DNA of 64,000 nt from an uncultured Syntrophomonas sp. (GTDB lineage Bacteria > Bacillota > Syntrophomonadia > Syntrophomonadales > Syntrophomonadaceae), in contig CAZBSD010000004.1 of the NCBI GenBank assembly GCA_964494735.1, positions 10,988-74,987 of the forward strand, read 5' to 3'. Shown here piece after piece: positions 2,564-53,968 of this stretch. The translations under genes and the position numbers were made by a program. Positions within the stretch are counted from its first letter, which is position 1. Each line of letters opens with the position of its first letter. Below the pieces are notes generated by a model. The model was not told the DNA's origin and searched no databases. It worked only from the letters and a program-made list of their open reading frames with translations.

Positions 2564-5500
2564 TCAGCTGGCATTGCGAAGATATTCAGCCATCTTGGGC
2601 ATGAAATAGGGGATGATCTCGGGCAACATCTTGGGCATCAAAACCGCCATAGTAGGTGGCATCAGATCAGGCATCTGTTCCTCCATATAGGGCGGCATAG
2701 GGATAGCCTGACCTACCTTCTCCAGCATCTTGGGCATCACCTTGGGCAAAATATCGGGCAGCAGCCGCGGAAACAAGGCCGGCATTACTCCGTTCATCAT
2801 GGCTATCATCGGTTCTTTGAATACATCCGGGGCCTTGATGACAGTGGCCATCATGGTGCGATACATCTCCGGCATTGCTTGTATCATATCGGGAATCATC
2901 TCCGCCATCAGGTCGGCCATGCCCCATGGTGTCATCATGCGAATCATGGCTTCGAACACTGCCCATTTCTCGTCCATCACTGCATTGGAGGACGGCACTG
3001 TATGCCCCATGGCTTCAGCCGCCAAGGTGGCAAGATCCTTTATGTCGATCGGCAAGCCGCCTAAATCGCGGGAACGGGCTAACTGCACCCGGCAACAGGG
3101 GCAGGCGGTGAGCAGGGTGTCAGCGCCAGTATCGACTGCCTCCTGCACCCTCATGATACCGATCTTTTCAGCAACATCGGGGTCAGCCACCAGGCTCAGG
3201 ACCGCCCCGCAGCAGTGGGCATCGTACTGGTTGAAACGCATCTCCCGGAAATTGGAGCCCGGAATAGCGTTGATCAAAGTGCGCGGACCCTCAAAACGGA
3301 CACCGGCCCGACCCATATGGCAGGGGTCATGGTAGGTAACCCGGCGGGCAACGTCATTGGGGAGAGCAAACTCACCCGCCTTGATCTTTTCGGCCAGAAC
3401 ATCGGCATAATGCATGGCGTGGAAAGGATAATCGATGCCCCTTTCCTCAGCCCAGTGCCGGTAGTATATCTCCCACACCAGCCAGCAGGCAGGACAGGTG
3501 GTCACTATCCTGGTGGCGCCGGTCTCCCTCATCAGCTCAATATTGTGGGCGGCGGTTTCATCGAAAACCTCCCAGCGCCCGGAAACCAGCATAGGAATAC
3601 CACAGCAGTGTTCCCCTTTGCCCATGTAGGAGAATTCGATGCCGGCATCATTGAGCAAGAGTGCAGCCGACTGGGCTACGTCCTGTTCCACGTAACTGGA
3701 TGTACAACCAGGGAAAAATGCGTATTCGGCACTCTCCTTGATCATGGGTCGAATCTCCTCAGTAATCCAACCGTCCCGGTTCTTGGCATATTCACCCCAT
3801 ATGTTGCCCTGTTGGCGCATGGTATTGGCCATGATCTCAAAAGGCGGGAAGGTGTGGTAACCGCGTCCGTCTATCAGGAGACCGCGCAGTTTCAGCCATG
3901 ATGTCTCATTAGGCAAATCCAGCTGACAGGTTCGGTTGCACATCTCACAGGTCGTACACGCCATAAAGGTATTTACCGCCCGCTGGTCAAATTCTGCTTC
4001 ACCCTCCATGACCATCTTCAAGAAAGTCCATTTCCCCCGGGGTGATTGTGATTCCCATCCGCGCCCGTAATACTGGTCGCAATGGTCGATACAGTATCCG
4101 CACTGGGAGCACGCATAGGCATACCAGGCGATATCACCCGGTATCCCCTTTTTCTCCTCAAATACCTCCCCGCTTTCTTTGCCCTTGGCAAGGTTGCCGA
4201 AGACCCGGATAAGCGGTTCAATCGCGCTGGCCATCTTCAGTCCCCCGGCCACCAGAGTTCCATCCATTACCTTACCGGGATTCATCAGGCCCTCCGGGTC
4301 CAGGCTTCGTTTATAATTTACCAGGGCATCGAGATGTTCCTGACCCAAGATCTCTTTGGCAAATCCGCTGAAATATAGGCCGGTGGCGTAGGGACGGCCT
4401 CCGTGTTTTTGAGCCATTTTCAAGGCGGTCAGGGATAGACCATAGGCAAGGTTGAATTTAAACTTGCGTTCATCATGGGGAATGAAACCCAGCAGCACTA
4501 CCTCGCGCCGGTTGGTGGTAAATCCCTCAAGTATGAAGGGATGTGCGATCTCCTGGCTGGTATCGTTTATTACCTGGGCTAGCTTTTCAACCGGCACCAC
4601 CACTTCACTGGGTATAAGTGAGGGAGCGATGCGCTTGGCCCTCATGGGCTCGAAACGTGCCGCCCATTCATGTTCGGCTATCTCCGGATTCAGTATCTCG
4701 CCTTGATCCTTCACCGCCAAGGCCATTACGTCATCGCTGACCAAGTCACAACGGTCGGATGTACAGGCTAATAGAACTATGAATTTCTCCGGCAAGACCA
4801 CCTTATGGCTTTCTGCCACCGGATGACCGTGATGGAGATGAGGCGGAAAGCTGTTCCTCATTTTGGCAGCTTCAGGGTTGATAAAAGTCACCGACCAAAT
4901 CGGAACTTTGCGATTATAGATACCGGTTATGAAAGATGTCATCTGCTCAGCTGTACTGAAGGCAATCGCGTTGACATGCATTGGCTTCAATGGTTTGACC
5001 CGCAGTTTGATCTGACTGATGAAACCGGTGGTGCCGTTGGCTTCACTGACCAGATTGAGGTCCTTGCCCTGCAGGTTTACTATACTGCCATCTATCTGCA
5101 CTAATCGGGCCGAAAAAACATTATCTTTGAAATAACCGTACTCATAGCTGCCAATGCCAGCCCCACCCTGGGCCAGCCATCCCCCTACTGTAGATGATGG
5201 GGCACTGGTAGGATAGAGAGCCAGGGTCAGTCCCTTCTGATTGAGGTGATATTCCAGTTCATTCCAGACTACCGCAGGCTCCACAGTGGCACTGCGTTCC
5301 TCTTCGTTTATGGCGATTATCTTTTTCATGCGGTTAAATTCGACTACCAACCCGCCTTCGACCGGCAAAACACCCCCATACCCGGAGGTAGCCTTTCCTC
5401 TCGGGGTCAATCTGATTCTCTCCTGCCGTGCCATATTCATCAGATCGGTCAGTTCCTGCTCCGTCTCTGGCTGCACGATTCCATCGGGTACCGGATTACC

Positions 5501-5635
5501 GACCAGAGGTTGAACCAAGGATGGCATTACTCCCATGTCGCGAGCATATATCTTGCGTTCCAGTACATCAAAGCTTATTCTCGAGCCATAACTTTCTATC
5601 AACCTCTTCTTTAAATCTTCCCTGATCTTTGGCAT
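2564..5635 (-). CDS. FAD-linked oxidase (GlcD-like) fused to an HdrD/GlpC-like Fe-S/CCG module, with a Met/Pro-rich C-terminal tail
   Basis: Start taken at ATG 5635 (MPKIREDL; SD AGGGGG 8 nt upstream), not the ORF-track start at 5677. The N-terminal part is an FAD-binding oxidase. Two ferredoxin motifs are present (CSQCGYCIDHC, CTTCEMCNRTC). Two CCG domains are present (HCCGIPM with TCPACW, and HCCGAVL with CPCCRVQ). The last ~127 aa are about 20% Met. Confidence 0.85.
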   Translation of the reverse strand: MPKIREDLKKRLIESYGSRISFDVLERKIYARDMGVMPSLVQPLVGNPVPDGIVQPETEQELTDLMNMARQERIRLTPRGKATSGYGGVLPVEGGLVVEFNRMKKIIAINEEERSATVEPAVVWNELEYHLNQKGLTLALYPTSAPSSTVGGWLAQGGAGIGSYEYGYFKDNVFSARLVQIDGSIVNLQGKDLNLVSEANGTTGFISQIKLRVKPLKPMHVNAIAFSTAEQMTSFITGIYNRKVPIWSVTFINPEAAKMRNSFPPHLHHGHPVAESHKVVLPEKFIVLLACTSDRCDLVSDDVMALAVKDQGEILNPEIAEHEWAARFEPMRAKRIAPSLIPSEVVVPVEKLAQVINDTSQEIAHPFILEGFTTNRREVVLLGFIPHDERKFKFNLAYGLSLTALKMAQKHGGRPYATGLYFSGFAKEILGQEHLDALVNYKRSLDPEGLMNPGKVMDGTLVAGGLKMASAIEPLIRVFGNLAKGKESGEVFEEKKGIPGDIAWYAYACSQCGYCIDHCDQYYGRGWESQSPRGKWTFLKMVMEGEAEFDQRAVNTFMACTTCEMCNRTCQLDLPNETSWLKLRGLLIDGRGYHTFPPFEIMANTMRQQGNIWGEYAKNRDGWITEEIRPMIKESAEYAFFPGCTSSYVEQDVAQSAALLLNDAGIEFSYMGKGEHCCGIPMLVSGRWEVFDETAAHNIELMRETGATRIVTTCPACWLVWEIYYRHWAEERGIDYPFHAMHYADVLAEKIKAGEFALPNDVARRVTYHDPCHMGRAGVRFEGPRTLINAIPGSNFREMRFNQYDAHCCGAVLSLVADPDVAEKIGIMRVQEAVDTGADTLLTACPCCRVQLARSRDLGGLPIDIKDLATLAAEAMGHTVPSSNAVMDEKWAVFEAMIRMMTPWGMADLMAEMIPDMIQAMPEMYRTMMATVIKAPDVFKEPMIAMMNGVMPALFPRLLPDILPKVMPKMLEKVGQAIPMPPYMEEQMPDLMPPTMAVLMPKMLPEIIPYFMPKMAEYLRNAS

Positions 5636-5775
5636 GGCTGTATACCCCCTAATGGTATTTTCTACATTATAGCACAACCATTCTGGAGGGGAACGGAATA
5701 TTTTTGTATAAATAGTTTATACTGCCCATTATCATTGGGGCCAGTAGTTACGGTGTCAAATTGATGGATCCTGGA

Positions 5776-26378: not shown

Positions 26379-26804
26379 CTACTGCTCCCTTATGGCCGAG
26401 GGTGGAACGATGTATACATCATCGCCACGATGGTCGAAATACTCGCTTAACTTCCAGTATACCCCTCGACTCAAGCGGGTATCACCTTCATATTGATAGG
26501 ATATGTATGGGACGTCGCCCTTAAAAAACAATTTGATCTCGTGCTCCAGGATCATCTCCTGCAGGTCGTGAAAGACCAGGGTAATCGGCATCTCGCTGTC
26601 TTTGATGCCGCTAGCTAGATACGGGACGTCCTCCACTATCACCGGATTTTCTTCTTGACCCATCTTTATGAAATAACTGCCGTCATCCCGGCGGCACATG
26701 TTCTTGGCCAGTATATTCAGAATCTGACGCCGGAACATTTCTGCCTGGCCAAAATACCATTTGCCGTTTGCTTTGATCGTGATGTCCTGCACCCATTCTT
26801 CCAT
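26379..26804 (-). CDS. DUF1285-like protein
   Basis: ATG 26804, 9 nt after AAAGGAGG. ..ANGKWYFGQAEMFRRQILNILAKNM.RRDDGSYFIKMGQEENPVIVEDVPYL.. fits the DUF1285 pattern as I recall it. Confidence 0.6.
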   Translation of the reverse strand: MEEWVQDITIKANGKWYFGQAEMFRRQILNILAKNMCRRDDGSYFIKMGQEENPVIVEDVPYLASGIKDSEMPITLVFHDLQEMILEHEIKLFFKGDVPYISYQYEGDTRLSRGVYWKLSEYFDHRGDDVYIVPPSAIREQ

Positions 26805-26894: not shown

Positions 26895-29576
26895 CTACAT
26901 ATTTTCGGCTCGCTTGAACTGCAGTGAATTGCGGTATATCTGCTCTATATCGCGATCATCTATCTCATGATTGCCCATCCGTAAACCCGCCAGTGAAAAA
27001 CCATGCTTGCGGGCCAACTCGTGCAGATATTGGACTGTCTCCAGGGAAAGGATGTTACCGATACTGTAATCCCGGCAATTGCCCTCCAGGGCCAGTAATA
27101 CAGTCTCCGACAGGCAGGCCAGATTCACACCGTCACGATAGCCGAGGTTGGCACCGAAGCAAATATCGTCCGGGTATTGCACCAGGCCGCCTTCCAAAAC
27201 CAGGACATCATCTCTTTGTTCATACACTGCGGGAGCCACATCAGCCGGCCGGGCAACATCGCAGACCACCACCCCGGAACGCAGATTGGCGGGATAAATC
27301 AGATATTCCGGGTTGTTGCTGGCTGCCACTACCAGGTTGCAATCGGGAAGGTCAGCGGCAATGTCGGTGCTGGTACTGATCGGTACTGTGAGGTTAAGGA
27401 ATGTACATGCTTCCCGGATAAGTTCCAGGGTCAGTTCTTGGTCCCCTCTGATCCTCCCGGCCAGCAACGCTGATAGCTCGCCAACCGTATTGTCCAATAC
27501 TCTCAGCAGGCGGTTCAGCCAGAGACTCATACCGTCCAGGCTGCCTTGAAGCATGCGCTGGCGGGCATACCCGAGTATATCGCGGGCCAGCGAATTAAGT
27601 CGCAAACGGCTGCTGGTAGGACGCTGGGGACTGCCAAACAGAGTCATCTGGCAAACCCTTTCCGAGACCATCATGGCACAAGCCCGACCGATAGAACCAT
27701 TGGCACCAACAACACCGGCCCGGGCTGCCAAAGGCTCGATATGCATCTTCTCCGCACCCAGAAACAACGCTTCCATCGCCATCAAGGTAGTGAAGCTGTT
27801 GCCGCTGGTTATGGCTACATTTCGTCCCGTGACAGACCGGCCTCCTCTCGTGACCACCGAGGTCAGCGCGCCCAGTCCGACTATCTCAGCACCCATGTCG
27901 CGGCCCATATCTACGGCCCGAGCTATTACGTCCACAACCTCAGCGTTAGGCATACTCATTATTTCCCGGGCTCCCATTGGGACTCCTATCAGCCAACCCT
28001 GAGCAACTGTGCCATCCAATGATCTTATAGCGGGCATGGTGCAGGTCAACCCGGGCTCATTTATCTCGCTCTCCCATTTCATTATCTTGTATAGTTCATC
28101 GCGGTTATAACTGGCGAATGAGGGATTGTTGATAACCACATCTTCTGGAGCCGGATAATGGATGATGAAGGCAAATTTACGGGTCGGCTCTTCCCCAGGT
28201 AGCAGGGCTGAAGATTTGATCTTACGGGAAATGGCCCGGTAGTCACCGATGACTCCCGGTTTGCGCCGATCACCTATCAAGTAGCGATAAAGACTGGCAT
28301 AATCTCGATATTTGAGGAGCTGGCAGACTACCTCCAAGGCTTCCAGAACCCGGTCTATCTCCTCATAACTGATAGTAAGAGTCGGTTCCAGGCGCAGGGT
28401 CATGGAATTGTTCAAAAAAGGCGCCAGTCTTATCTGGTACACATTGAGCAGGAAGCCAACCAACAGGGCGGTGAATCCTCCCTGCTCCTCCATAAAAGCC
28501 ATGTCGAAGGAACCCACATCCTGCAGTGAATGAAATTCGATGCCGACCAGCAGACCCCGGCCCCGTACTTTTTTGATGACTTCCGGGTAATTCCGACCCA
28601 GTGAGCCTGCTCCATCCATAAGGTATTTTCCCTTGGCATCTACTTCCTTAATGAAAAAACGATCATGGGCGCAAAGCTTCTCCAATACGGCGAGACCGAC
28701 GCCGCAGGTCAGGTTATTATTAGCGAAGGTCGAACTGTGCAGCATGCCGAACTCTTCATTCCAGGCCCGGGGCGAACTCAGACAAACCCCCAGGGGGACC
28801 AGTCCGCCACCCAGAGCTTTGGCCAGGGTCATGATATCCGGTTCCAGGCCGAAATGCTCACAGGCAAACAACCGGCCGGTGCGCCCCAAACCGGTCTGTA
28901 TCTCGTCGACTATGAATAACACCTCAAACTCTCTGCATATCTGCTGTACTTCGCGCAGATAGTCGGCCTGCCCAACCACTACCCCGCCTTCTCCTTGTAC
29001 CAATTCGACAATGAATGCAGCCACCTGGTCATGGCGGGTTGCCAATAACCGGCGCAGGCTGTCGGCATCGTTGTAGGGTACCTTTAAGAATCCAGGGGCA
29101 GGAGCCCGGAATGGGGTCTGATAGGAAGTCTTGCCGGTAGCCGAAAGAGCTCCCAGCGTCTTGCCGTGAAAACTGTTGGTAGTCGATACGATAATCTCCC
29201 GGCCAGTCGTGGACCGGGCCAGCTTCACGGCGGCCTCCACTGCTTCAGTACCACTCTGGCAGAAGGTGGAGTAGCACAGCTCTCCGGGGGAACACTCGGC
29301 CAAAGCGTTGGCCAGTCGCAGCGCTTCACCGGGCAGCGACGGCTGTACCAGGCTGGGCAGTTTTCTGTTGCGGGCGCTTATAAGTGCTTCCCACACGAAA
29401 TCGGGGTTGTAGCCAAATGGGATTGCCCCATACTGGGCTATAAAATCGAGGTAACGAATGCCCTGGTCATCCATCAGGTAACTGCCTTCCCCCTCGATAT
29501 AGTTTTTGTCCAACTGAAAACTCTCTAAGATTTTGATCAGACTGGGGTTGAGCAACTCTCTCCGTAACTCTGGCAT
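26895..29576 (-). CDS. bifunctional fusion: class-III (PLP) aminotransferase + acyl-ACP reductase (AAR)-like NAD(P)-binding domain
   Basis: Start at ATG 29576, 6 nt after GGAGG (ORF-track start 29609 is upstream). The N-terminal half has [25 protein letters not shown] and the PLP lysine context LAKALGGG. The C-terminal half is colinear with cyanobacterial AAR as I recall it: [27 protein letters not shown], GxxGxxG as GANGSIG, and [14 protein letters not shown] with the catalytic-Cys position conserved. Confidence 0.8.
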
Positions 29577-29625
29577 CAATGTCCTCCTCTTGTGCACATG
29601 GTTGTGCAAATTGCCGATTACATAT

Positions 29626-29653
29626 ATTTTATATCTACCCCCAGTTTTGTCAA
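29626..29653 (-). promoter_or_regulatory. sigma-A type promoter upstream of the aminotransferase-reductase gene
   Basis: The minus strand reads TTGACA (29653..29648), a 16-nt spacer, then TAAAAT. Confidence 0.45.
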
Positions 29654-40021: not shown

Positions 40022-41029
40022 CTAATCCGCCTCCTTAACTGCATCGATGATCCTGATGATGTTTACGTCAGTTGGGCAGACGATTATACATCTTCCGCAA
40101 CCGGTGCACAGAGGAGTACCATAGCGTTCCTGGAAGAATTCCAGTTTGTGCAGGAAGCGCTGCCGGAACCGTTCTTTGCCAGCCCCGCGCGGATTACCGC
40201 CCCCAGCCTCCCGGGTGTACTCTTCGAACATACATGAGTCCCAGGCCCGGAACCGGTAACCCTTCTCGCCCCACATCTTGACCTGAATGTCAAAACAGTA
40301 GCAGGAGGGACAGACGTAGGTGCACATGCCGCAATTTATACAAGGCTCGGACATCTTGTCCCAGATGGGATGTTCAAACGTATCCTTGAGTTTCTCAGCT
40401 ACCCCGCTGTAATCCACCTGTTGGGTGAACGGCTGGGCGGCCGGCAGCTTGACATCCTTATCCTCCAACAATCCTGCCAACTGACCAGTGACTGTTTCAC
40501 CCTTGGCGGTCTTGGCCTCCCAGATGAAATAGTCGCCCCCATCCCGGATGATGACATCGGCTCCGGCCGGTTCCAGATGGTCAACCTCCATGGCATTGCA
40601 GAAGCAATTGGGCCCTGGTGCGTAGCAAGCGTTGGCGATGATGATATTATTACTGCGCCGCGCCTGATAAAAACTATCGATGAAACCACGGGTCAGGAAC
40701 ACCTCATCCATGGCCAATATACCTTTGACATCACAGCCCCGGGCTCCAAAAATGAGGGTGGGGTGATTATCTTCAAAGGTCTGGTCGATTTTGATCGCCA
40801 TTCCCTCGCCCTGAATACCGTACATCTTCTCGGTCTGGGGCAGAACCACGTTTTTCGGGGATTGGTAGACGTTTAGCGCTTCCAGCATCAGTTCATCCCG
40901 ATCGGTCTGGAAACTGGCCCAGCTGAAATAGCCACTCTGCCCGCCCCTCTGCAGCGGTACAAAGACCTCCTGCTGGTCACTCAGTTTATTCAATGCTTCG
41001 GTAAGCTTGCTTTTACTTAAAATCTTCAT
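40022..41029 (-). CDS. flxB: 4Fe-4S dicluster protein (FlxB; AsrA/HydB-like)
   Basis: The C-terminal clusters read CINCGMCTYVCPSCYC and CTGCGRCIIVCP. Start placed at ATG 41029 (SD GGGGGTGG 8 nt upstream). The GTG at 41041 is an alternative. Confidence 0.8.
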   Translation of the reverse strand: MKILSKSKLTEALNKLSDQQEVFVPLQRGGQSGYFSWASFQTDRDELMLEALNVYQSPKNVVLPQTEKMYGIQGEGMAIKIDQTFEDNHPTLIFGARGCDVKGILAMDEVFLTRGFIDSFYQARRSNNIIIANACYAPGPNCFCNAMEVDHLEPAGADVIIRDGGDYFIWEAKTAKGETVTGQLAGLLEDKDVKLPAAQPFTQQVDYSGVAEKLKDTFEHPIWDKMSEPCINCGMCTYVCPSCYCFDIQVKMWGEKGYRFRAWDSCMFEEYTREAGGGNPRGAGKERFRQRFLHKLEFFQERYGTPLCTGCGRCIIVCPTDVNIIRIIDAVKEAD

Positions 41030-41044
41030 CTTCTCTGCCACCCC

Positions 41045-41950
41045 CTACAAAAAGCTGTCCGGGTCATCGATGCGGTAGACACTCAAAGGGGGTTTGGACC
41101 CTTCCACGTATTGCATACCCGCTTCCGCTCCGCCATATAGCGCGCCAACATCCTTGATCATCTTTTGGTTCAATAGCATCAAGGGGATGTTGACCGGGCA
41201 GACCCGTTCACACTCGCCGCACTCGATGCAGCGCCCCGCCATGTGAGCATGTTTGACCAGGTGGTACATCATGTTATCGGTGGTGCTGTTCTCCCGGCCT
41301 ACCCATTGCGGTTTCATCTCGTCGAAAATGCAGGTGCGGCAGTCGCAGGCCACGCAAACCTGGCGGCAGGCATAACATCGTATGCAGGTGGACAGTTTAT
41401 CCTCCCAGAACTTATAGCGCTCGTCGGCCGACATCTGCTCCAGTTCTTTCACCCGGGCGAAGCGATCCCCTTGCTGGCGGGGGCTTTGGGCTGGTCCGAT
41501 GATCTCGTCGTAGATAACCGGGTTGGGCTGAATACAATCGAGGCATTTCTGAGCCAATCCATCCGCTTCCGCTTTCTGGCTGAACCCGCCATAGTTGCGG
41601 GCTGCCGCCAAGGGATCCTTAAGGCCCGGACAGGGGATCCCCACTATATATAATCTATCCCGTTTGATCTGCAGGTCTTCCAGCAATCTGACCACCCCGC
41701 GGGAATCGCAGCCTTTGACGGCGATCCCTATCCGCTCATGGCCATCACGGAATTTGAGCAGGGAATTGGATACGTTGTATATGCTGTATTCATTGAAAAC
41801 TATATTCTTAACATCCTCTTTACTGCGGGCTACGTAAGATTTGGTTTGAAACTCCTTCTCACCCTTCTCCCAGGCCAGGAAAATATCTATCTTGGCTTCA
41901 TCGAAAAGGCGGGCCGCAATAGCCTGGATCTTATCGGTCATTTCTTTCAT
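41045..41950 (-). CDS. flxC: Fe-S protein (FlxC; FrhB/4Fe-4S ferredoxin-like)
   Basis: Motifs CIRCYACRQVCVACDCRTC and CIECGECERVCP. Its ATG overlaps the flxD stop (ATGA). Confidence 0.75.
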   Translation of the reverse strand: MKEMTDKIQAIAARLFDEAKIDIFLAWEKGEKEFQTKSYVARSKEDVKNIVFNEYSIYNVSNSLLKFRDGHERIGIAVKGCDSRGVVRLLEDLQIKRDRLYIVGIPCPGLKDPLAAARNYGGFSQKAEADGLAQKCLDCIQPNPVIYDEIIGPAQSPRQQGDRFARVKELEQMSADERYKFWEDKLSTCIRCYACRQVCVACDCRTCIFDEMKPQWVGRENSTTDNMMYHLVKHAHMAGRCIECGECERVCPVNIPLMLLNQKMIKDVGALYGGAEAGMQYVEGSKPPLSVYRIDDPDSFL

Positions 41951-42381
41951 TGCGCATCCCTCAACTTTCGATTGGGTCCCATCTTCTTGACATCGGCGAC
42001 CAGTTTGGCCATGGTCTCCTGGAACTTGATACCTTCCGCCCCGGATATCCAGGAAACCTGGTATCTATCCGGCTCGATGCCGATAAATTCCATCAGGCTC
42101 TTCATCACCGTCTGGCGGCGGCGCTGATAGTAATTGCCACTACCATAGTGGCAGTCGCCCGGGTGTCAGCCCGACAACAGCACCCCGTCCACCCCACGGT
42201 TGAAGGCCCGCAAGACCAGCATCGGGTCCATGCGCCCTGAACAGGGGGTACGGATAATGCGTACATCGGCTCCATATTCAAGGTGGTTCAGACCGGCCAG
42301 GTCCGCGGCCGCGTAGGAACACCAGTTGCACGCAAACACGATGATCTTGGGCTCCCAGCCCCCTTTGGCATCTATAGACAT
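41947..42381 (-). CDS. flxD: MvhD/FlxD-like [2Fe-2S] protein, selenocysteine-containing (UGA 42166..42168 read as Sec)
   Basis: The ORF track stops at TGA 42166..42168 after ..GVDGVLLSG. My translation continues in frame: U-HPGDCHYGSGNYYQRRRQTVMKSLMEFIGIEPDRYQVSWISGAEGIKFQETMAKLVADVKKMGPNRKLRDAQ, ending at stop 41947..41949. The TGA sits exactly where MvhD proteins have the Cys of GCHxGDCHY. Confidence 0.8.
42136..42152 (-). other. candidate bacterial SECIS hairpin for flxD
   Basis: The minus strand reads GCCACTA-TGG-TAGTGGC, a perfect 7-bp stem with a GG-containing apical loop. It starts 13 nt after the UGA (17th nt counting from the U). Confidence 0.55.
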
Positions 42382-44363
42382 AATGCATCCACCTCCGCTA
42401 CCAATTGGTCATTGCTAAAGCCCTTCAGATTCAGGGCCAGGGTACGGCAGGCGGGCAGACAGGAGCCGCATCCCTGGCACAGGCTGTTGTTGATAACCGC
42501 CACCTGGCGGGTAAAAGGACCATGGCCGTGTCCGCCCCGCTCCTGGTACTCCTGCAGGGAGATAGCTGTATACGGGCATATCGGCACGCACAGACCACAT
42601 CCGGAACACTTGCTGATGTCTACCTCGGACACCATCGGTTCGGTGGCCAATTCGGTCTTGGACATGAGTCCCAGCACCTTCACGGCTGCCCCGCTGGCCT
42701 GGGCTACGGTATCGGGTATGTCCTTGGGGCCCTGGCAGGTGCCGGCCAGGTATACCCCGGCAGCAAAGGTTTCCACCGGCTGCAGCTTGGGATGGGCCTC
42801 CTGGAACCACCCGTCCTTGTCGACTGAGAAACCGACCATCTTGGCCAGTTCGGTCGCTCCGGCCGCAGGAACCATGGCCGAAGCCAGGACCACCATATCA
42901 GCCTCGACTTCTAGGGGCATACCCATCAAGGTATCTTCGGATTTCAGGATCAATTTATCTCCGCGGGGATAGATCTTGCTGACCCGGCCGCGGATATATT
43001 TGGCGCCGGCATTCAAAGCCCGCTGGTAAAACTCTTCGTAGTTCTTGCCGGCAGTGCGGACGTCCATATAGAAAACATAGGCTTCGCTGTTCTCGATCTT
43101 GGTCTTGACCTGGTAAGCATGCTTGGCGGTATACATACAGCAAGCCCGGGAACAATAACTCTTGCCTTTGGTATCATCGCGGGAGCCCACGCATTTTATG
43201 AAAGCAATATTCTTGGGCTCCTTGCCGTCGGAGGGACGCAGAATCTGTCCTCCGGTTGGTCCGCCAGCCGAAACCAGCCTTTCGAATTCCAGTCCGCTGA
43301 TTACATCGGGGTACTTGCCGTAACCATATTCACCATAGGCGGATTTCCAATCGAATTGGTCATAGCCGGTAGCCATGACGATAGCCCCGATGTCCAGCTC
43401 CTTATATACCACCATGTCCTGGAATCTGATGGCGTCGGTGGGGCATACCTTTTCGCATATGCCGCACTTGCCGCTGGTCAGCTTGGTGCAGGTAGCCGCA
43501 TCTATATACGGCTTGCCGGGCACCGCCTGGGGAAACAGTTTGTGGATGGCAGTCCTTTTGCCCATACCGAAATCAAACTCGTCGGCTACCTTCTTGGTCG
43601 GACATTTATCGATGCAGGTACCGCAGCCGGTACATAAATCCCAATCTACATATTTAGGCTTCTGTTTAACAGTAACTTTGAAGTTGCCTATATATCCTTT
43701 GACATCGGTTACTTCTGAATAGGTCATCAGTTCGATGTTAGGGTGCTGCGCCGCAGCCACCATCTTGGGAGTGCCAATTCAGGCGGCACAGTCCATAGTG
43801 GGGAAGGTTTTGTCCAGCTGGGTCATCTTCCCGCCGATGGACGCCTCTCTTTCCACGATGATCACCTGGTGCCCGCCCTCGGCTATATCCAGGGCGGCCT
43901 GCATGCCGGCGATACCTCCGCCAATCACCAAAGCTCGTTTGGTAATAGGAACGGTAGAGACCTGCAGGGGTTTGTTGTGCAAGGCCTTGGCTACCGCCAT
44001 CCGCAACAGCGATTTAGCCTTGGCAGTAGCCTGCGATTTGTCGTGATGGACCCAGGAGTCCTGCTCCCGTATGTTGACCATCTCCATCATATAGGCATTC
44101 AAACCGCCAGCCGCAGTGGCTTTGCGAAAAGTCGGTTCATGCATGCGCGGTGAACAGGATGCCACCACCACCTGCTCCAGTTTGTGCTCCGCGATAGCGC
44201 TGCGGATCAGTTCCTGGCCAGGATCTGAACACATGTACTTATAGTTGGTGGAATAGACCACCCCCGGCAAAGTCTTGGCAAATTCCGCCACTTGTACCGT
44301 ATCGACCGTAGCTGCGATATTGGTGCCGCACTCGCAAACAAATACCCCAACTCGCTTTTTCAT
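42372..44363 (-). CDS. hdrA: heterodisulfide reductase subunit A (HdrA), selenocysteine-containing (UGA 43779..43781 read as Sec)
   Basis: The ORF track gives two in-frame pieces, 43779..44363 and 42372..43763. The junction reads ..KTFPTMDCAA-TGA-IGTPKMVAAAQHPNIEL. It aligns with the HdrA motif FPT.DC..C.L.PKM, with the TGA at the second Cys. GGGIAGMQAALD is the FAD motif. Several 4Fe-4S motifs lie downstream. Confidence 0.85.
43742..43761 (-). other. possible SECIS hairpin for hdrA
   Basis: The minus strand reads GGTGGCTGC-GGC-GCAGCACC, an 8-bp stem with one bulged G. It begins 17 nt after the UGA (21st nt counting from the U). It is less clean than the flxD hairpin. Confidence 0.35.
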
Positions 44364-44430
44364 CTCTCCGTCTCCCTCCTGGTTGGACTGTGTAACCCTC
44401 TATAATAAGCCCATGCCAATCGTAATTGGA

Positions 44431-45741
44431 CTAGTCCTGGCATTCACCTTGTCTCTTCAGTTCCTGTTGTACAAAGGCGGCCGCCGCCTTTTTGGCCAAT
44501 TCCATATCCCGGGCCATCAGATTAGCCAACTTGCCTATCCGCTTCTCATCCAGGATCGACACTAATATACCAGCCTGGGCCGGGTCGGCCACCAGTTTAA
44601 CCGCCATCTTATCGGGATTCTTGGTCAGAGCGGTGACAAAAGCGTCCACCTTCTTCTGGTCAGGCTCGGCAGTAGCCGCCGGCTTGGCGGGCTTGCCCTG
44701 GGCTGCCCCGCTGACCTCTCCTCCCTCCGGGCTCTCGCCGGCTGCACTGGCCTTGGCGGCTGCTTTGGCGGCTGCCGCCGCTCTGGCCGCTGCGGCCGCT
44801 TCAGCTTTGGCCCGGGCCTTCTGGGCCGCTTCCTGGGCTGCCTTTTCAGCTGCCGCTCGGGCTTCTGCTCCCCGGACCTCTATCATCTTCAAATACTGGC
44901 CAGCTTCTACGAAGTGCTTCTCCAACCCCACTTGTTGAGGCTGGTCACCACAAGCCAGGGCCAGCAGTTCGGTCACGTAATAGACCGGCAAATCGAATTT
45001 CTCCCCGAACTGTTTCTCGATTGCGGCCTGGCGCATATCTAAATTCAACATACATAGCGGACAAGCTGTGACAATGCATTCCGCTCCTGATTCTTTGGCG
45101 TCCTTCAATACCCGGTACAGCATCGTCATCCCCACATCAGGCCGGGAGGTAACCAGGGCTGCTCCGCAACATTCAGTCTTATGGGACCATTCCACCGGAT
45201 CTGCTCCCAGGGCCTTCATTATCTGGTCCATCGACTGGGGATCTTCCGGATCGTCAAAACCGGTGTGCTCCGCCGGCCTTACCAGCAGGCAGCCATAGTA
45301 GCTGGCCGCTTTCATGGTGGTCCAGGGTTTGGTCACCTTGGCCGCGATGGCATCGATGCCGATCTTGTTGACCAGCACATCCAGGATGGAAAGGGTCTCG
45401 GTATTGCCGGCCAATTCCATCTCCAGCACCTGCTCTACTTTTTGGCGCATCTCCGGGTCATGCTGGATTGTGTGTTCGGCGTACCGGTGGCGGCTGTAAC
45501 AAGCTGCACAAGGGGAGATTATCATATTTAGACCGCTCTTCTCGGCGATGGCCAGATTGCGGGCGGGCAGAGCCACCGACAATAATTTGTCGGTATTGTG
45601 ACCGGAGGTTGCTCCGCAGCAATTCCAGTCCTCCAGTTCTTCCATCTTGAAATCCATTATGTGCGCGGTTCTCTCCATCGACATATGGTACTCGATACCG
45701 CTGCCCTCAGATGCACATCCCGGATAATAGGCAAATTTCAT
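44431..45741 (-). CDS. hdrB: heterodisulfide reductase subunit B (HdrB) with a ~145-aa C-terminal extension
   Basis: Two CCG domains (NCCGAT.., ECCGAAL..; PCAACY, CPLCMLNLD). After about residue 290 comes an Ala/Lys/Glu low-complexity stretch and then a ~65-aa terminal segment. Confidence 0.85.
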   Translation of the reverse strand: MKFAYYPGCASEGSGIEYHMSMERTAHIMDFKMEELEDWNCCGATSGHNTDKLLSVALPARNLAIAEKSGLNMIISPCAACYSRHRYAEHTIQHDPEMRQKVEQVLEMELAGNTETLSILDVLVNKIGIDAIAAKVTKPWTTMKAASYYGCLLVRPAEHTGFDDPEDPQSMDQIMKALGADPVEWSHKTECCGAALVTSRPDVGMTMLYRVLKDAKESGAECIVTACPLCMLNLDMRQAAIEKQFGEKFDLPVYYVTELLALACGDQPQQVGLEKHFVEAGQYLKMIEVRGAEARAAAEKAAQEAAQKARAKAEAAAAARAAAAAKAAAKASAAGESPEGGEVSGAAQGKPAKPAATAEPDQKKVDAFVTALTKNPDKMAVKLVADPAQAGILVSILDEKRIGKLANLMARDMELAKKAAAAFVQQELKRQGECQD

Positions 45742-48940: not shown

Positions 48941-49645
48941 ATGCGGTCTATATTGCGCAAGTTGTATCGGGGCCAGGATTTGAATGATGAGGAATACGCC
49001 CGCCTGGCAGGTTATGCGGATGAACTGCGTGCCAATTCGCCTCATTCCTACCAATTATTCTATGAGCGCTTCGCACCCATCCTTCACCGCGATTATGGTA
49101 TTCACCTGCCTCGCTTCTATTTCGGTATAGATGATGTCTATGAATATCTGCTCTCCCATCCGGAATTGACCGCTCGCCTCCGCACCGAGCCCCTGGATGC
49201 GACCGTTTTTCCCGCTCACCTGCGCGAATACCTCTTATCCCCCGAAGGCCAGAACGCCTTATATACGTCGCTCCTGCCGGCGCTGGAACACCCCGATTAT
49301 GGCCGGCCTGACAATAAGGAGCTGCCCCGTCCCCGCCTAACCGAGGCAGTCGTCAAATTCGAAAGCGGCAATCCTTTGAAAGAGACCGGGCTCAAGGCTC
49401 ATTTCAATCGCCTCATCGCCTTCCCGTTCGTAAGCCGGTTGCAGAGTGTGCGTTATCTGCGCGGTACCAAAGCCAGCCAGGACAAGATTGACATCATCAC
49501 CGGCAACTGTCTGGGAGGTATTTTTACCAACAAAGAGAAATCAATATATTATTATATATTCCTTACGGAGGACGACCGCAGTAAGGCCGAAAATGCTTGC
49601 CGACTTCTCAACCAGACTCTGTATGGAATCAGCGGCGGGGAATGA
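48941..49645 (+). CDS. hypothetical protein A of a four-gene cassette
   Basis: ATG 8 nt after AGGAG and 20 nt after the pdaA stop. 234 aa with no TM segment and no motif I recognise. Confidence 0.6.
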   Translation: MRSILRKLYRGQDLNDEEYARLAGYADELRANSPHSYQLFYERFAPILHRDYGIHLPRFYFGIDDVYEYLLSHPELTARLRTEPLDATVFPAHLREYLLSPEGQNALYTSLLPALEHPDYGRPDNKELPRPRLTEAVVKFESGNPLKETGLKAHFNRLIAFPFVSRLQSVRYLRGTKASQDKIDIITGNCLGGIFTNKEKSIYYYIFLTEDDRSKAENACRLLNQTLYGISGGE

Positions 49646-49649
49646 ACTC

Positions 49650-51116
49650 ATGCACACCATTATGGAAACACTGGCGGCGGGGCCGGTCGAACAAGATCTG
49701 TTCGGTTATTGGCGCAAGGAACTCGAACTGCGCCGGATGCTGAAGGACGCCCTCGACGGACCGACGGTTCACATCGAAAACCAGGCTCAATTCGATTTCC
49801 TCAGAAGAGGTCTTTTCTACGGCCCCCACCAGGATTCGTTTTTTAACGTACTATGGCGCAATATGGCGGAACCGGCGGTCATCACCATGGTGATGGATTC
49901 ATCGCCATCAGTCGTGGTGCAATACTTGGACTATCTTACTATTCATATGACTGATCAGCATCGCCCCGCCCCTTCCCTGCGGTTCTTGATAAATCTCTAT
50001 AATGAACATTGGCAGCCTCAATATGCCCGACTGATTCAGACCCTGGATGCTGAACAGTGCGGATACCTGGTTTCCCGCACCGGCAATGGGGACCTGCGCC
50101 GGATGCTGAAAGATCGCCTGGAGAAGATCAAGGATCATGCTGCCCATAATGAGCCCATGACTGGCGACAAACAGCCGGTGACGGCCTGGCCCAGTATCCA
50201 TGGCGATAAGGTAGAACTATTGTCGGCCGCCGCCACCGTGTTGCAGGGTTGGGACCAGGCCGGAGCTGTTCCAAACCAAAGCCTGGCGCGAGTGGAGACT
50301 CTTATGGATGGAGCCGAACTGCTGTTTCGGGCTGGATTGCTATCCGATTGTATGGCCGTGCTTAACCGGATGTTCTCCGATCGCGAACTGGAAAGACACT
50401 CCGCGCTGTTGTCGGCCACCGGTCCCCTGGGTGGGCGGCTGCTCCGGCTGTTGGACCGGGTGGTTCCTATATTTGGCCTGCTGGTGGATCCCTTCCATCC
50501 ACGCAGTCATGTCCTCAGCAATTACCGCAATCTATTCCCCGGTTGCAATCCCGATCCGGCTTCTCTGCTCTACCTTGACCTTTACGCCCTGGTGCTGGCC
50601 GGCTTGCAAAAACGACGCCATTATGCCAGCTTCGAGATAGTGCAAAAAGCATCCGCAATCCGATCCCTGTGTGATGATGACCGGCTGGTTCAACAATTGG
50701 TGGTATGGGGGCACAGCGGTGTTTTTAATGGTTCCGGACTATTAGACTTTCTAGGCTCCAAAATGATGCAGCGCCCCCACGAGACCCTGGCTGGTCTGGA
50801 AACTCTGCGCTATCTGCATATGCGGGGGGCGTTGTCCCTGGACAGGCCAACCGCCTCTGGGATGCTGTCTGTATTCCTGCAGCTTTTCTATTGGCTGCCC
50901 CACCCAAGCTTCATTAATAGCCAGCTTGTCAAACAGATTGGACCGGAGAGCGATGAGGAGGTTAGAAGAGAATCAGAACAGATTCTGGTCTCCTGGCACC
51001 GGGTCTGGCATGATAATAAGGATACTCCAGCGGTCCCGCCCCATCACCAGCAAAGCGGTGCAGAGCAGGCGCTGGATAAGATGATTCGCTTGAGCCGATC
51101 GATGGGGGTGTTATAG
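49650..51116 (+). CDS. hypothetical protein B (488 aa, apparently helical)
   Basis: ATG 4 nt after the stop of A, with GGGGA upstream. The ORF-track start at 49446 overlaps A and is unlikely. No recognisable motif. Confidence 0.6.
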   Translation: MHTIMETLAAGPVEQDLFGYWRKELELRRMLKDALDGPTVHIENQAQFDFLRRGLFYGPHQDSFFNVLWRNMAEPAVITMVMDSSPSVVVQYLDYLTIHMTDQHRPAPSLRFLINLYNEHWQPQYARLIQTLDAEQCGYLVSRTGNGDLRRMLKDRLEKIKDHAAHNEPMTGDKQPVTAWPSIHGDKVELLSAAATVLQGWDQAGAVPNQSLARVETLMDGAELLFRAGLLSDCMAVLNRMFSDRELERHSALLSATGPLGGRLLRLLDRVVPIFGLLVDPFHPRSHVLSNYRNLFPGCNPDPASLLYLDLYALVLAGLQKRRHYASFEIVQKASAIRSLCDDDRLVQQLVVWGHSGVFNGSGLLDFLGSKMMQRPHETLAGLETLRYLHMRGALSLDRPTASGMLSVFLQLFYWLPHPSFINSQLVKQIGPESDEEVRRESEQILVSWHRVWHDNKDTPAVPPHHQQSGAEQALDKMIRLSRSMGVL

Positions 51117-51117
51117 A

Positions 51118-52695
51118 TTGGAATCGGAAAATCCCACCATACAATATAACCAAATCATCGAGGAGATGCTGGCCCGACTGCGCAGCGACCTTGACCGTCA
51201 GATTAAACAGTGCCCTGAGTTCGGTGATCAGGATGGGCTGGACCAATACATTCTGGACTTGAATACCTTCTATTATGAAAGCTTCCATGACCATTTCATG
51301 CCTCGATACCGGCAAGCGATCGAGACCGACATGCGCCGGATTCATAATCTTAGCCGCCAGGAGGATTCGGTAAGGGCAGATTTGATTACATTGCTCAGAT
51401 TCCTGATAAGGTCTTTTAATCTGACTAAGGCTACTATGGGGCAATTGCATGTGCAGCGGGGAGAAATGGAATCACAGCTGCTGGCTCTGCAGACCAGCCT
51501 GGAAACCGGAAGTGTCGATCTTCTCTACCTGTTAAAGGAGCATGCCGAGGCCTGGGCATCCTTCCGAACCCAGTTGGATGTCGGCCGCACCATATCTTCG
51601 GACCGACAGCTGCTCAGCAGTCTCGAACATTCTCCCGTCTGCAGCCTGGCGGCCTCCCTGTTCCGAGTCTGGATGCCCACCAGCAACAAGGACAAACGTG
51701 ATTTCAACCGCTTGTTGGCGCAATGGCAGCTGGCTTTGAAACTGTTGCTGAAAATGCAGGAAACCCAATCCCCCGGCAAAGACTGGCTGACCGCCCAGCT
51801 GAATGAACTGGAAAAGATCGATGCCGGCTGGGATAACCGTAAGGTGCCAGCCCCCATTCGGGGATGGTACAAGCTTAACCTTCAGCCCACCTATCAGCTC
51901 TACCAGGAGGTGCTGAACGGCTCGACCGGGAGAAACGACCAACGCAGGATTATGCGGGTGGCCTCCCAGTTTCACGATTGGCTGCAGGCTTGGCTTATTG
52001 TTGTGGAGCGTTGCCTGGATTACTCCTCCCGAGGGTGGGACAACTGGATGGATCAGATTACGTCCCTATTAGGCCGAGATGAGAAATACTGGCTGGCCTG
52101 GGCTGACTACGCCCAGAAGAGCCTGCACTCCATCGACGAGCTAATAGTGGGTCTGTCAAACTTGCGCAGTGCCAGCTATGAACCATTCAGCGGCCGCAGT
52201 CGGCAGATCCTGACCGATGCCTGCCAATACCTGCTGCAGACTATCGGTGAACAGCCGGTTTCGCCTTTGCGAGCGGCGGCGGAAAAACTCCGGTCAGAGG
52301 CGGGGATGACTCTGCAGGGGATTGAAATCATGGCTGAACGGGAGACTCATATCCGGACCGCGATGGAAACATATACCGCTATCCGCACCGCCATCGGCTC
52401 AGACATCGATACACTTGAATCGGCCCAGCGGGACCTGGAGAAGATGCTCGACAAACGGGTTCTCGCCGACAAATTCGGGGATATGGATATAAAATTGGAT
52501 CATATCGTCATCCAAACCGGCGCCGCATTTCCCTCCGCCTATGTTCATCTGTTGGATAGAGCTCCTATCGAAACCAAGGCTTCCGATGCTCCGGCTGGTA
52601 ACGTCATTTACCAAGAAGGGGACATTTTCATAATCCGCTCGGGGGGCCGGAGCTATGAAGTAATACCCAGAATAATCGTGGCCGGGAAAGGATAA
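51118..52695 (+). CDS. hypothetical protein C (525 aa, helical/Trp-rich with a C-terminal beta-rich segment)
   Basis: TTG start 1 nt after the stop of B, with GGGGGTG 7 nt upstream. No recognisable motif. Confidence 0.6.
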   Translation: MESENPTIQYNQIIEEMLARLRSDLDRQIKQCPEFGDQDGLDQYILDLNTFYYESFHDHFMPRYRQAIETDMRRIHNLSRQEDSVRADLITLLRFLIRSFNLTKATMGQLHVQRGEMESQLLALQTSLETGSVDLLYLLKEHAEAWASFRTQLDVGRTISSDRQLLSSLEHSPVCSLAASLFRVWMPTSNKDKRDFNRLLAQWQLALKLLLKMQETQSPGKDWLTAQLNELEKIDAGWDNRKVPAPIRGWYKLNLQPTYQLYQEVLNGSTGRNDQRRIMRVASQFHDWLQAWLIVVERCLDYSSRGWDNWMDQITSLLGRDEKYWLAWADYAQKSLHSIDELIVGLSNLRSASYEPFSGRSRQILTDACQYLLQTIGEQPVSPLRAAAEKLRSEAGMTLQGIEIMAERETHIRTAMETYTAIRTAIGSDIDTLESAQRDLEKMLDKRVLADKFGDMDIKLDHIVIQTGAAFPSAYVHLLDRAPIETKASDAPAGNVIYQEGDIFIIRSGGRSYEVIPRIIVAGKG

Positions 52696-52699
52696 CCGT

Positions 52700-53968
52700 A
52701 TGCACGTAGTTATAGACATGGGCGACAAAAACACCGTACTGGCAGCCTGGCGAGAAGGTCAGCCCCTGGATGACCCGTCCATTCTGGTAAATTTACCAGG
52801 TCTTAACGATTCCACCACCGGGGTGAATGATGACCCCTGGAGCCGGGCCAGTTTATATCGCCATGTAACTAATCTGTACCGGGAATATCTGCTGCCCAGC
52901 CGGTTGTCAATCAGGTCTCTGGCAGCAGCCATACCAGATATATCCGGAGTGCCATTAAGGCGGACCCTGCTGGATGTTTTCGAGGAAGTATTGGGTTTGG
53001 AGGAAGCCATCATTGTCCCTCGCTTCCTGGCCATGGCCGCCGGCTGGCAGCTCCACAGTCCACAGTCCTTGGGGAATATAATGGTGCTGGATGCTCAAGA
53101 TGAAGAGGAAGAAGTCGCCTTCATCAGCGCCTGCCCCGATGTGACGCTCACCCTGGAAGGACAGTATCCCGGAAATCTTCGGACCATCCGGGAAGCGGCT
53201 GCCCGACTGGGGTTTCTGTCCTCTTCCGGGTGGAACCTCGACCACCTTTACCTTCTGAATAATGTTGGAGCCAACAGCCAGATAAGGCGGTTGATATCGG
53301 GCCTGCCCAGCCGGGTGACCATCCACAATGGTGACAATCCTGGCCGGGCTGTGATGGAGGGTCTGGTTGCACACGTATATCAGGGCTTCTCTCCAGGGAG
53401 ATTAAGCGTGATTTATCCTTTTGACTTTTACCTGGCCAGCTTCGACCAGGAGGAACAAATGAATTCCATCCACAGGTTGCCTTTCGATACCAACAATCTT
53501 GAGCTCGACTGCACCTCCTGCTACAGGCTGGCCCGTCTGGTCACGACAGATATTCCCGCCAGTGAGGCAGACCCGGAGCAGTTACGGCTCGGCATCTTCG
53601 AGATCGGCCACCAGGACCGCATCGAGCTAGACAATTTATCACTGGCTCAATCAATACTCAATATAGATTGCTGCCGCACCGATCTGCCTGACCGGGTGGA
53701 CCTGATCCTGGATATGGCAGCCGCCGTTATCCGTCCCGACCTGGACTCCGGCCGTGATGAGGGAGACCTTCTAGATCCGGCATCCTTTTGGGAACACTAC
53801 CACAACAGGCTCTCCCAGGACCATACCATTGGGCAACTATCCACACCAGCCCCTGACCCATCATCATCTTCAAGCGATCCGGCCGTCACTTTCTCCCCCC
53901 TGGACAACCAGATAGCTGTTACCCTGGCCCGGCTGCAATCACTATTGGGCCAGTGGAAACATTTCTAG
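52700..53968 (+). CDS. divergent Hsp70/EutJ-like ASKHA-fold protein (protein D) with a ~190-aa C-terminal domain of unknown function
   Basis: ATG 4 nt after the stop of C. Five segments appear in the order expected for the fold. [13 protein letters not shown] is phosphate-1-like. [40 protein letters not shown] parallels DnaK VP....AQR.A..[38 protein letters not shown] sits at the phosphate-2 position without glycines. [16 protein letters not shown] sits at the adenosine-motif position. [11 protein letters not shown] matches NPDEAVA.GAA. Confidence 0.6.
   Translation: [422 protein letters not shown]

Follow-up and report, generated by a model that had tools for sequence, protein, structure and literature searches.

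Two characterised enzymes join reduction of an acyl thioester with transamination of the aldehyde product on one polypeptide. PtTamH, described in 2022 from the tambjamine YP1 pathway of Pseudoalteromonas tunicata, has a class-III transaminase at its N-terminus, which a linker of ~50 aa connects to a C-terminal thioester reductase with a GxxGxxG motif and Cys887, and was "confidently classified as an AAR", that is, an acyl-acyl carrier protein (ACP) reductase (PMC9594044). In vitro, with NADH and glutamate, it converts C12 acyl chains bound to TamA into dodecylamine, and it rejects free C12-coenzyme A (CoA) (PMC9594044). PigE, studied in 2021, carries an AAR-like N-terminal domain with Cys296 equivalent to AAR Cys294, reduces a thioester and then transaminates the aldehyde (PMC8341465). 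Here we analysed a gene at positions 26895..29576 (minus strand) of a 64,000-nt stretch of DNA from an uncultured Syntrophomonas sp. (contig CAZBSD010000004.1; hereafter the window), whose 893-aa product combines the same two kinds of domain. We conclude that the gene probably encodes a TamH-type bifunctional enzyme, with conversion of fatty acyl-CoA or acyl-ACP to an alkylamine as the best guess at its reaction.

The open reading frame list and its translation place a single 893-aa protein at this position. A first-pass annotation, prepared from the sequence alone, had already described a two-domain protein of this length without stating its strand; the gene lies on the minus strand, as do all features of it given below, and the plus-strand reading of 26895-29576 yields only stops. 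The N-terminal domain (residues 1-434; 28275..29576) is the complete pyridoxal phosphate (PLP) aminotransferase that had been proposed, since a check of the domain boundaries matched residues 26-415 to the class-III family PF00202 with an E-value of 1e-84. Its nearest solved relatives are the transaminase domain of PigE (E 6e-81) and YgjG, the putrescine aminotransferase of E. coli (E 5e-79); each of the two interconverts aldehyde and terminal amine. Consistent with these matches, Foldseek comparison of a full-length AlphaFold2 (AF2) model, with a predicted local distance difference test score (pLDDT) of 78.8, gave the transaminase domain target-normalised template modelling scores (TM-scores) of 0.75-0.85 to YgjG, PigE and ArgD. 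The predicted Schiff-base lysine, Lys253 (codon 28818..28820), lies in the motif LAKALGGG (residues 251-258) and aligns with the corresponding lysine of PigE. No variation was seen in 23 aligned homologues at Lys253, Asp224, Gln227, Arg395, His473, G624xGxxG630 or Cys821. An inter-domain linker (residues 435-465; 28182..28274), with a mean identity of 50% and no regular secondary structure in the AF2 model, leads into the second domain.

The C-terminal domain (residues 466-893; 26898..28181) was assigned as an AAR-type thioester reductase from its NCBIfam, PDB sequence and fold matches. No Pfam model reached threshold over this half. Among the NCBIfam models, it matched the N-terminal region of PigE (NF053554) with an E-value of 1e-47 and the AAR model TIGR04058 with an E-value of 5e-15, and a PDB sequence search returned full-length PigE (4PPM, E 1.4e-27) and Synechococcus AAR (SeAAR, E 1.8e-10). 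The top 50 Foldseek matches of the full-length model were aminotransferases only, and the C-terminal domain was therefore modelled alone. The best match of this domain-only model (pLDDT 88, predicted TM-score 0.88) was SeAAR 6JZY, with an E-value of 1.9e-19 and a target-normalised TM-score of 0.77. The shared fold with SeAAR (6JZQ/6JZY) goes with a sequence identity of ~19% and a common set of motifs, namely the FxFIxH His, GLGxxTS, T(S/T)GN, GAxGxIG and ACxxE. The Rossmann dinucleotide-binding motif GANGSIG (residues 624-630; 27687..27707) is aligned with GATGDIG of SeAAR, and G624, A625, G627, S628, I629 and G630 within it are invariant. Cys821 (codon 27114..27116), the predicted acyl-enzyme nucleophile, is invariant in the homologues and stands opposite both Cys294 in the 'FAC' of SeAAR and the PigE cysteine. 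The first-pass annotation had been right to call this domain AAR-like and to align its conserved cysteine with the catalytic one of AAR. All the motifs that it quoted are present in the translation as well, at residues 224-234, 251-258, 468-475 (FAFIIHYP), 565-575, 589-596 (ITSGNSFT), 624-630 and 819-832. Judged by its sequence, the domain belongs to the AAR superfamily in the wider sense and is not an equivalog as defined by TIGR04058. Across the Syntrophomonadaceae homologues, mean identity is 69% in the transaminase domain and 71-72% in the AAR core; both domains are thus intact and equally conserved, which supports the reading of a bifunctional enzyme.

The structural comparison also brought up a different candidate for the C-terminal domain. 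Structures of the carmabin terminal amidation domain (TAD; 9e4x and others, E ~6e-18) came nearly level with AAR in Foldseek. The TAD of nonribosomal peptide synthetases (NRPS) is a recently described AAR relative that shares the invariant Cys and the NAD site, and its chemistry is unresolved (bioRxiv 10.1101/2024.10.28.620694). The near-equal Foldseek ranking and these common features would fit a C-terminal domain that is no reductase at all, being either TAD-like or a non-catalytic nucleotide-binding or regulatory module attached to an ordinary aminotransferase. The sequence, however, matches PigE and AAR and not TAD. TAD chains were absent from the PDB sequence search with the C-terminal domain even at E-values up to 10, and the likeness to TAD is one of structure alone, with no NRPS context. 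The invariance of the Cys and of GxGxxG likewise argues against a non-catalytic module, as does the C12 aldehyde detected from the PtTamH and PtTamA cascade without L-Glu, as the title of Figure S14 of that study states (PMC9594044). We consider a TAD-like or non-catalytic domain very improbable and the least likely of the rival explanations.

Cyanobacterial AAR is a stand-alone protein of ~340 aa whose partner is aldehyde-deformylating oxygenase (ADO), and no diiron or ADO homologue was found in the 64-kb window. Unlike AAR, the C-terminal domain has a C-terminal extension and a helical insertion of ~80 aa, in addition to its fusion to a transaminase. The insertion (residues 651-730; 27387..27626), delimited by alignment of fused against stand-alone proteins, lies between Rossmann strands beta2 and beta3; AF2 predicts four helices there with a pLDDT of ~90, and its mean sequence identity is 37%. 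An insertion of ~70-80 aa is present in all aligned transaminase-fused AAR domains and absent from three aligned stand-alone AAR-like proteins and from SeAAR. Accordingly, the spacing from the glycine motif to the cysteine is 197 residues here against ~133 in SeAAR, and the spacing of 180 in PtTamH (G707-C887) implies a comparable insertion there. The inserted helices may form an inter-domain interface or an aldehyde tunnel.

In overall architecture, the Syntrophomonas protein follows PtTamH, in that a class-III transaminase with its Lys is joined through a linker of ~30-50 aa to an AAR-type reductase with GxxGxxG and Cys, in this order. PtTamH is longer by ~50 aa (941 aa with its PLP lysine at 340, compared with 893 aa and Lys253 here), and its demonstrated conversion of an acyl thioester to an aldehyde and on to a primary amine is the chemistry predicted for the present protein. 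The two differ in setting. PtTamH belongs to a pyrrole-alkaloid cluster and receives its substrate from TamA, a dedicated adenylation-carrier protein, whereas here the host is a strict anaerobe of the Bacillota, the 64 kb contain neither an alkaloid cluster nor a TamA-like protein, and the conserved partner is a DUF1285-like protein. The PigE model, on the other hand, scores best of all family models over the whole protein (NF053554, 524 bits, covering both halves in four separate stretches), and PigE is also the best sequence match for each half (transaminase, E 6e-81; AAR-like, E 1e-27 to 1e-47), with conserved Cys and Lys in the respective domains of both proteins. Its domains stand in reversed order, with the AAR-like one first and the transaminase second, and it acts on a 3-acetyloctanoyl thioester in the 2-methyl-3-amylpyrrole (MAP) branch of Serratia prodigiosin biosynthesis, within the pig cluster. 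According to the first-pass annotation, the reductases of TamH and PigE come from another family, which would make an AAR-type partner a distinct solution; this was mistaken, since PtTamH and PigE both carry AAR-type domains (PMC9594044, PMC8341465). The route from thioester to aldehyde to primary amine that it proposed fares better, being the same as in the nearest characterised relatives and, for this protein, well supported by homology. A comparable logic of reductive release followed by transamination is found in the coelimycin-type thioester reductase (TR) with its transaminase and in Streptomyces TabE/TabA, but the coelimycin-type TR, a short-chain dehydrogenase/reductase (SDR), and TabE, which resembles aldehyde dehydrogenase (ALDH) and LuxC, are unrelated to AAR, and the activities reside on separate polypeptides (bioRxiv 10.1101/2025.08.11.669332). 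TR domains of the SDR type occur in actinobacterial alkaloid pathways (bioRxiv 10.1101/2025.08.11.669332).

To see how widely the fusion is distributed, as the first-pass annotation had suggested, we searched 1.84 billion representatives of 50%-identity clusters with the C-terminal domain using HMMER, which gave 2540 matches at E <=1e-3 and 406 at E <=1e-30. Architectures were counted for the best 150 cluster representatives. The order transaminase (TA) then AAR was found in 83 of these, 61 with TA-AAR, 11 with an extra N-terminal region (ANL-ACP-TA-AAR where checked, in P0141) and 11 with something further at the C-terminus, which in P0142, where it was checked, is an AMP-binding domain. A further 67, fragments among them, had the AAR-like domain alone, and the PigE order of AAR-like domain then transaminase occurred in none (0/150). 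PtTamH itself was not recognised among the 150 when they were screened by motif position, nor among named relatives of 927-991 aa. The metagenomic protein P0141 (1599 aa) carries AMP-binding, PP-binding, transaminase and AAR domains on one chain, while P0142 (1423 aa, also metagenomic) carries transaminase, AAR and AMP-binding domains. On paper, each would be a full single-polypeptide route from a carboxylic acid to an amine. Such fusions to ANL and carrier domains are the arrangement expected for a conversion of carboxylic acid to thioester, aldehyde and finally amine, and they favour the proposed chemistry.

Named TA-AAR members include Brevibacillus, with an AAR domain 41% identical to the present one, and Planctomycetota; published TamH homologues come from Pseudoalteromonas, Chitinimonas, Paucibacter and Streptomyces (PMC9594044). 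When seven diverse fused AAR domains were used for a profile search, the matches were mostly stand-alone AAR-like proteins of ~360 aa. NCBI records give the name 'shikimate dehydrogenase' to such proteins (P0290-P0380) from Alkaliphilus, Natronincola, Clostridium formicaceticum, Armatimonadota and Anaerolineae, which is probably a misannotation through a match to the Shikimate_DH NAD-binding Pfam model. Two TA-AAR loci of the wider family, from Brevibacillus (L027 10730-11620) and from a bacterial metagenome-assembled genome (MAG; L028 7916-8863), have after the TA-AAR gene a gene for a protein of ~300 aa with ExxH motifs. This protein is homologous to the 'VlmB homolog', a ferritin-like diiron protein (PDB 6D9F, E 3e-19), and shows weak Pfam matches to aldehyde decarbonylase and ribonucleotide reductase R2 (RNR-R2). 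In the MAG, a protein with an SCP2 lipid-transfer domain is encoded next after the diiron-like gene (L028 8860-9237). These observations suggest that in aerobes a diiron oxygenase further processes the amine or aldehyde product.

Within its own family the protein is strongly conserved. A full-length search retrieved more than 100 homologues of ~893 aa with 62-100% identity over 97-100% of the query, the clusters, likewise more than 100, standing at 62-86%, and all those with a source name came from Syntrophomonadaceae (Syntrophomonas, Thermosyntropha) or unclassified Bacillota MAGs. Likewise, the 23 loci from species-representative genomes all belong to Syntrophomonadaceae, except for one from an unclassified Bacillota MAG. 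The Syntrophomonadaceae fusion proteins form a tightly conserved clade with 58-86% identity. A literature search for Syntrophomonas together with transaminase-reductase enzymes of this type or with alkylamines found nothing. In the window, the fusion gene is surrounded by housekeeping genes, among them those for glutamate racemase, RNase PH, RdgB, fumarase, GerM, Lon, a TetR regulator, alanyl-tRNA synthetase and a penicillin-binding protein. Immediate neighbours in the window are an NYN/OST-HTH gene upstream and a DUF1285-like gene downstream, just as the first-pass annotation had listed them. Upstream synteny is retained among the closest relatives only, and other loci carry gene insertions further downstream.

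The DUF1285-like gene (26379..26804, minus strand; 141 aa) follows the fusion gene after a gap of 90 nt, in which no terminator-like site was found, and has its own AGGAGG. Its match to the Pfam model DUF1285_N (E 7e-6) is below the gathering score. The earlier statement that the fusion gene has no obvious pathway partners needs amending with respect to this gene. Of 20 informative loci, 19 have the two genes side by side, and in 18 the DUF1285-like gene comes immediately downstream with the same orientation. In S. zehnderi it is inverted (L018 10910-11317). In one Syntrophomonas MAG, the end of a contig carries a partial TA-AAR copy (L022 1-1008), which may be a second paralogue; the genes downstream of it are unrelated, and no DUF1285-like gene is among them. 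Homologues of the DUF1285-like protein are only proteins of ~133-149 aa, their named sources are nearly all Syntrophomonadaceae, and they diverge at the same rate as the fusion protein. Outside this family, no DUF1285-like homologue was found beside the TA-AAR gene in the Brevibacillus or the MAG locus. A nucleotide-based ligand was proposed in the sole study of DUF1285 structure (PMC2954208). In S. erecta, the DUF1285-like gene is followed by a gene of the DegV fatty-acid-binding family, and upstream of the TA-AAR gene there is a type I-C-like CRISPR-Cas operon (Cas3, Cas5d, Csd1, Cas7, Cas4, Cas1, Cas2; L024 1-6421).

The homology, the folds of both domains, their order and the conserved catalytic residues described above, combined with chemistry taken by analogy from AAR, PigE and TamH, lead to the following proposal. 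An acyl group would be transferred from a phosphopantetheine thioester, either acyl-CoA or an acyl-carrier protein, onto Cys821 of the AAR-family domain. The acyl-enzyme would then be reduced by NAD(P)H bound at GANGSIG, and the aldehyde released would be handed to the N-terminal class-III PLP transaminase, which, through Lys253 and with an amino acid donor such as glutamate, would turn it into a primary amine. The acyl donor would be a fatty acyl-CoA, or else an acyl-ACP that fatty-acid synthesis supplies, and the product an alkylamine; the co-conserved DUF1285-like protein may serve as an accessory, ligand-binding factor. We regard acyl-CoA and the acyl-ACP of fatty-acid synthesis as the likeliest donors because no TamA-like partner is encoded nearby and because the host has an acyl-CoA-centred lifestyle.

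Several points weigh against this proposal. A tblastn search of the 64-kb window with ANL-ACP, ANL and ACP queries detected no adenylation or carrier homologue, and neither a TamA-like gene, nor an ACP, nor a pyrrole/alkaloid cluster of the tambjamine or prodiginine kind was found within it. PtTamH rejects free C12-CoA, which makes it uncertain whether the TA-AAR architecture can take acyl-CoA directly, and the comparison with PtTamH was made from its published description. The family models set further bounds, in that the PigE model, with its domain order reversed, scores 524 bits where an equivalog needs 850, and TIGR04058 scores 55.7 bits against a cut-off of 449.7, so that the protein is an equivalog of neither. 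Moreover, no physiological place is known for an amine made by a strict anaerobe that oxidises fatty acids.

The substrate could also be something other than a plain fatty acyl chain. PigE, the best overall match, takes a 4-oxo-acyl thioester, and putrescine and acetylornithine aminotransferases are near relatives of the transaminase domain; moreover, universal conservation in one family and the housekeeping context suggest a role in primary metabolism. These facts would suit reductive amination of a functionalised short or medium acyl thioester, for example an oxo-acyl thioester yielding a cyclic imine as in PigE, or a dicarboxyl- or amino-acyl-CoA yielding an omega-amino acid or a diamine, in the synthesis of a cofactor, a polyamine or a small metabolite. 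The pathway context, however, points to no such product, and in the wider family both the SCP2 neighbour and the fusions to fatty-acid-type adenylation domains favour lipidic substrates. We consider a functionalised substrate unlikely.

The same context bears on the direction of the reaction. Rather than making an amine, the enzyme could consume one: the transaminase would convert an alkylamine or biogenic amine to an aldehyde, and the AAR-like domain, with NAD(P)+ and CoA, would oxidise the aldehyde to an acyl-CoA that enters beta-oxidation. CoA-acylating aldehyde oxidation is thermodynamically favourable, which counts for this direction. The members of the host family are beta-oxidising syntrophs, the surroundings of the gene are housekeeping and not a biosynthetic cluster, the window offers no adenylation or carrier partner to supply a thioester, and the transaminase domain is equally close to the catabolic putrescine aminotransferase and to PigE. 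In contrast, all characterised members of the AAR, PigE and TamH group act reductively, and no amine transporter or amine-responsive regulator is conserved beside the gene. The sequence itself gives no indication of direction. On balance, a catabolic role seems distinctly improbable to us, and we prefer reduction of a fatty acyl thioester followed by transamination. As a more speculative extension, to which we give a small but appreciable chance, the protein would be a Syntrophomonadaceae enzyme of core lipid or acyl-CoA metabolism, and not one of natural-product synthesis, that takes acyl-CoA directly without a carrier and has the clade-restricted DUF1285-like protein as a new acyl-CoA- or nucleotide-binding partner, either making alkylamines for an undescribed cell component or running in reverse into beta-oxidation.

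The gene (26895..29576, minus strand) begins with an ATG at 29576 and ends with a stop codon at 26895-26897. A ribosome-binding site, AGGAGG (29583..29588), could be read from the sequence 6 nt ahead of the ATG, and the choice of this start is backed by the homologues, nearly all of which are ~893 aa long and align from residue 1. A TTG start at 29609 was dropped in favour of ATG 29576 on the grounds of the ribosome-binding site and the homologue lengths. The first-pass annotation had also credited the gene with a near-consensus promoter of its own. A sigma-70-like match, TTGACA-16-TAAAAT (29626..29653, minus strand), is indeed present upstream and agrees with the consensus at 11 of 12 positions in a consensus scan, but seven sites of such quality were seen in the region where 5.3 are expected by chance, and we take it as a consensus match and no more, suggestive only. 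The window shows a uniform GC content of 0.50-0.55, so the fusion gene looks native, and the idea of a horizontal-transfer island was rejected on this uniformity together with the conserved synteny. An Rfam scan of the whole window returned no matches.

Elsewhere in the window, three consecutive large open reading frames (49446-53968, plus strand; 556, 525 and 422 aa) had no Pfam match at E <=1e-6. A 1037-aa fusion of FAD_binding_4, FAD-oxidase_C, 4Fe-4S dicluster and CCG domains is encoded at 2564-5677 (minus strand), and a series of Fe-S and CCG (Hdr-like) proteins at 40022-45741 (minus strand). The genes of these last two regions look like electron-transfer machinery.

As fusions of an AAR-type reductase with a transaminase have already been published for TamH and PigE, the present protein adds little on enzyme architecture; it is a taxonomically and contextually distinct member of the TamH/PigE enzyme type. 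Its existence indicates that the reduce-then-transaminate type is not limited to the pyrrole-alkaloid pathways of Proteobacteria. Instead, it occurs in a conserved, apparently housekeeping gene pair across a family of strictly anaerobic fatty-acid-oxidising syntrophs, and also in Brevibacillus, Planctomycetota and many metagenomic lineages. If acyl-CoA were accepted directly, this single compact protein could serve as a biocatalyst for fatty amines, which was a stated aim of the TamH work, and it would also point to an unknown amine metabolism in syntrophs. The remaining interest lies in what the enzyme does for its syntrophic, anaerobic hosts and in the DUF1285-like partner conserved with it.

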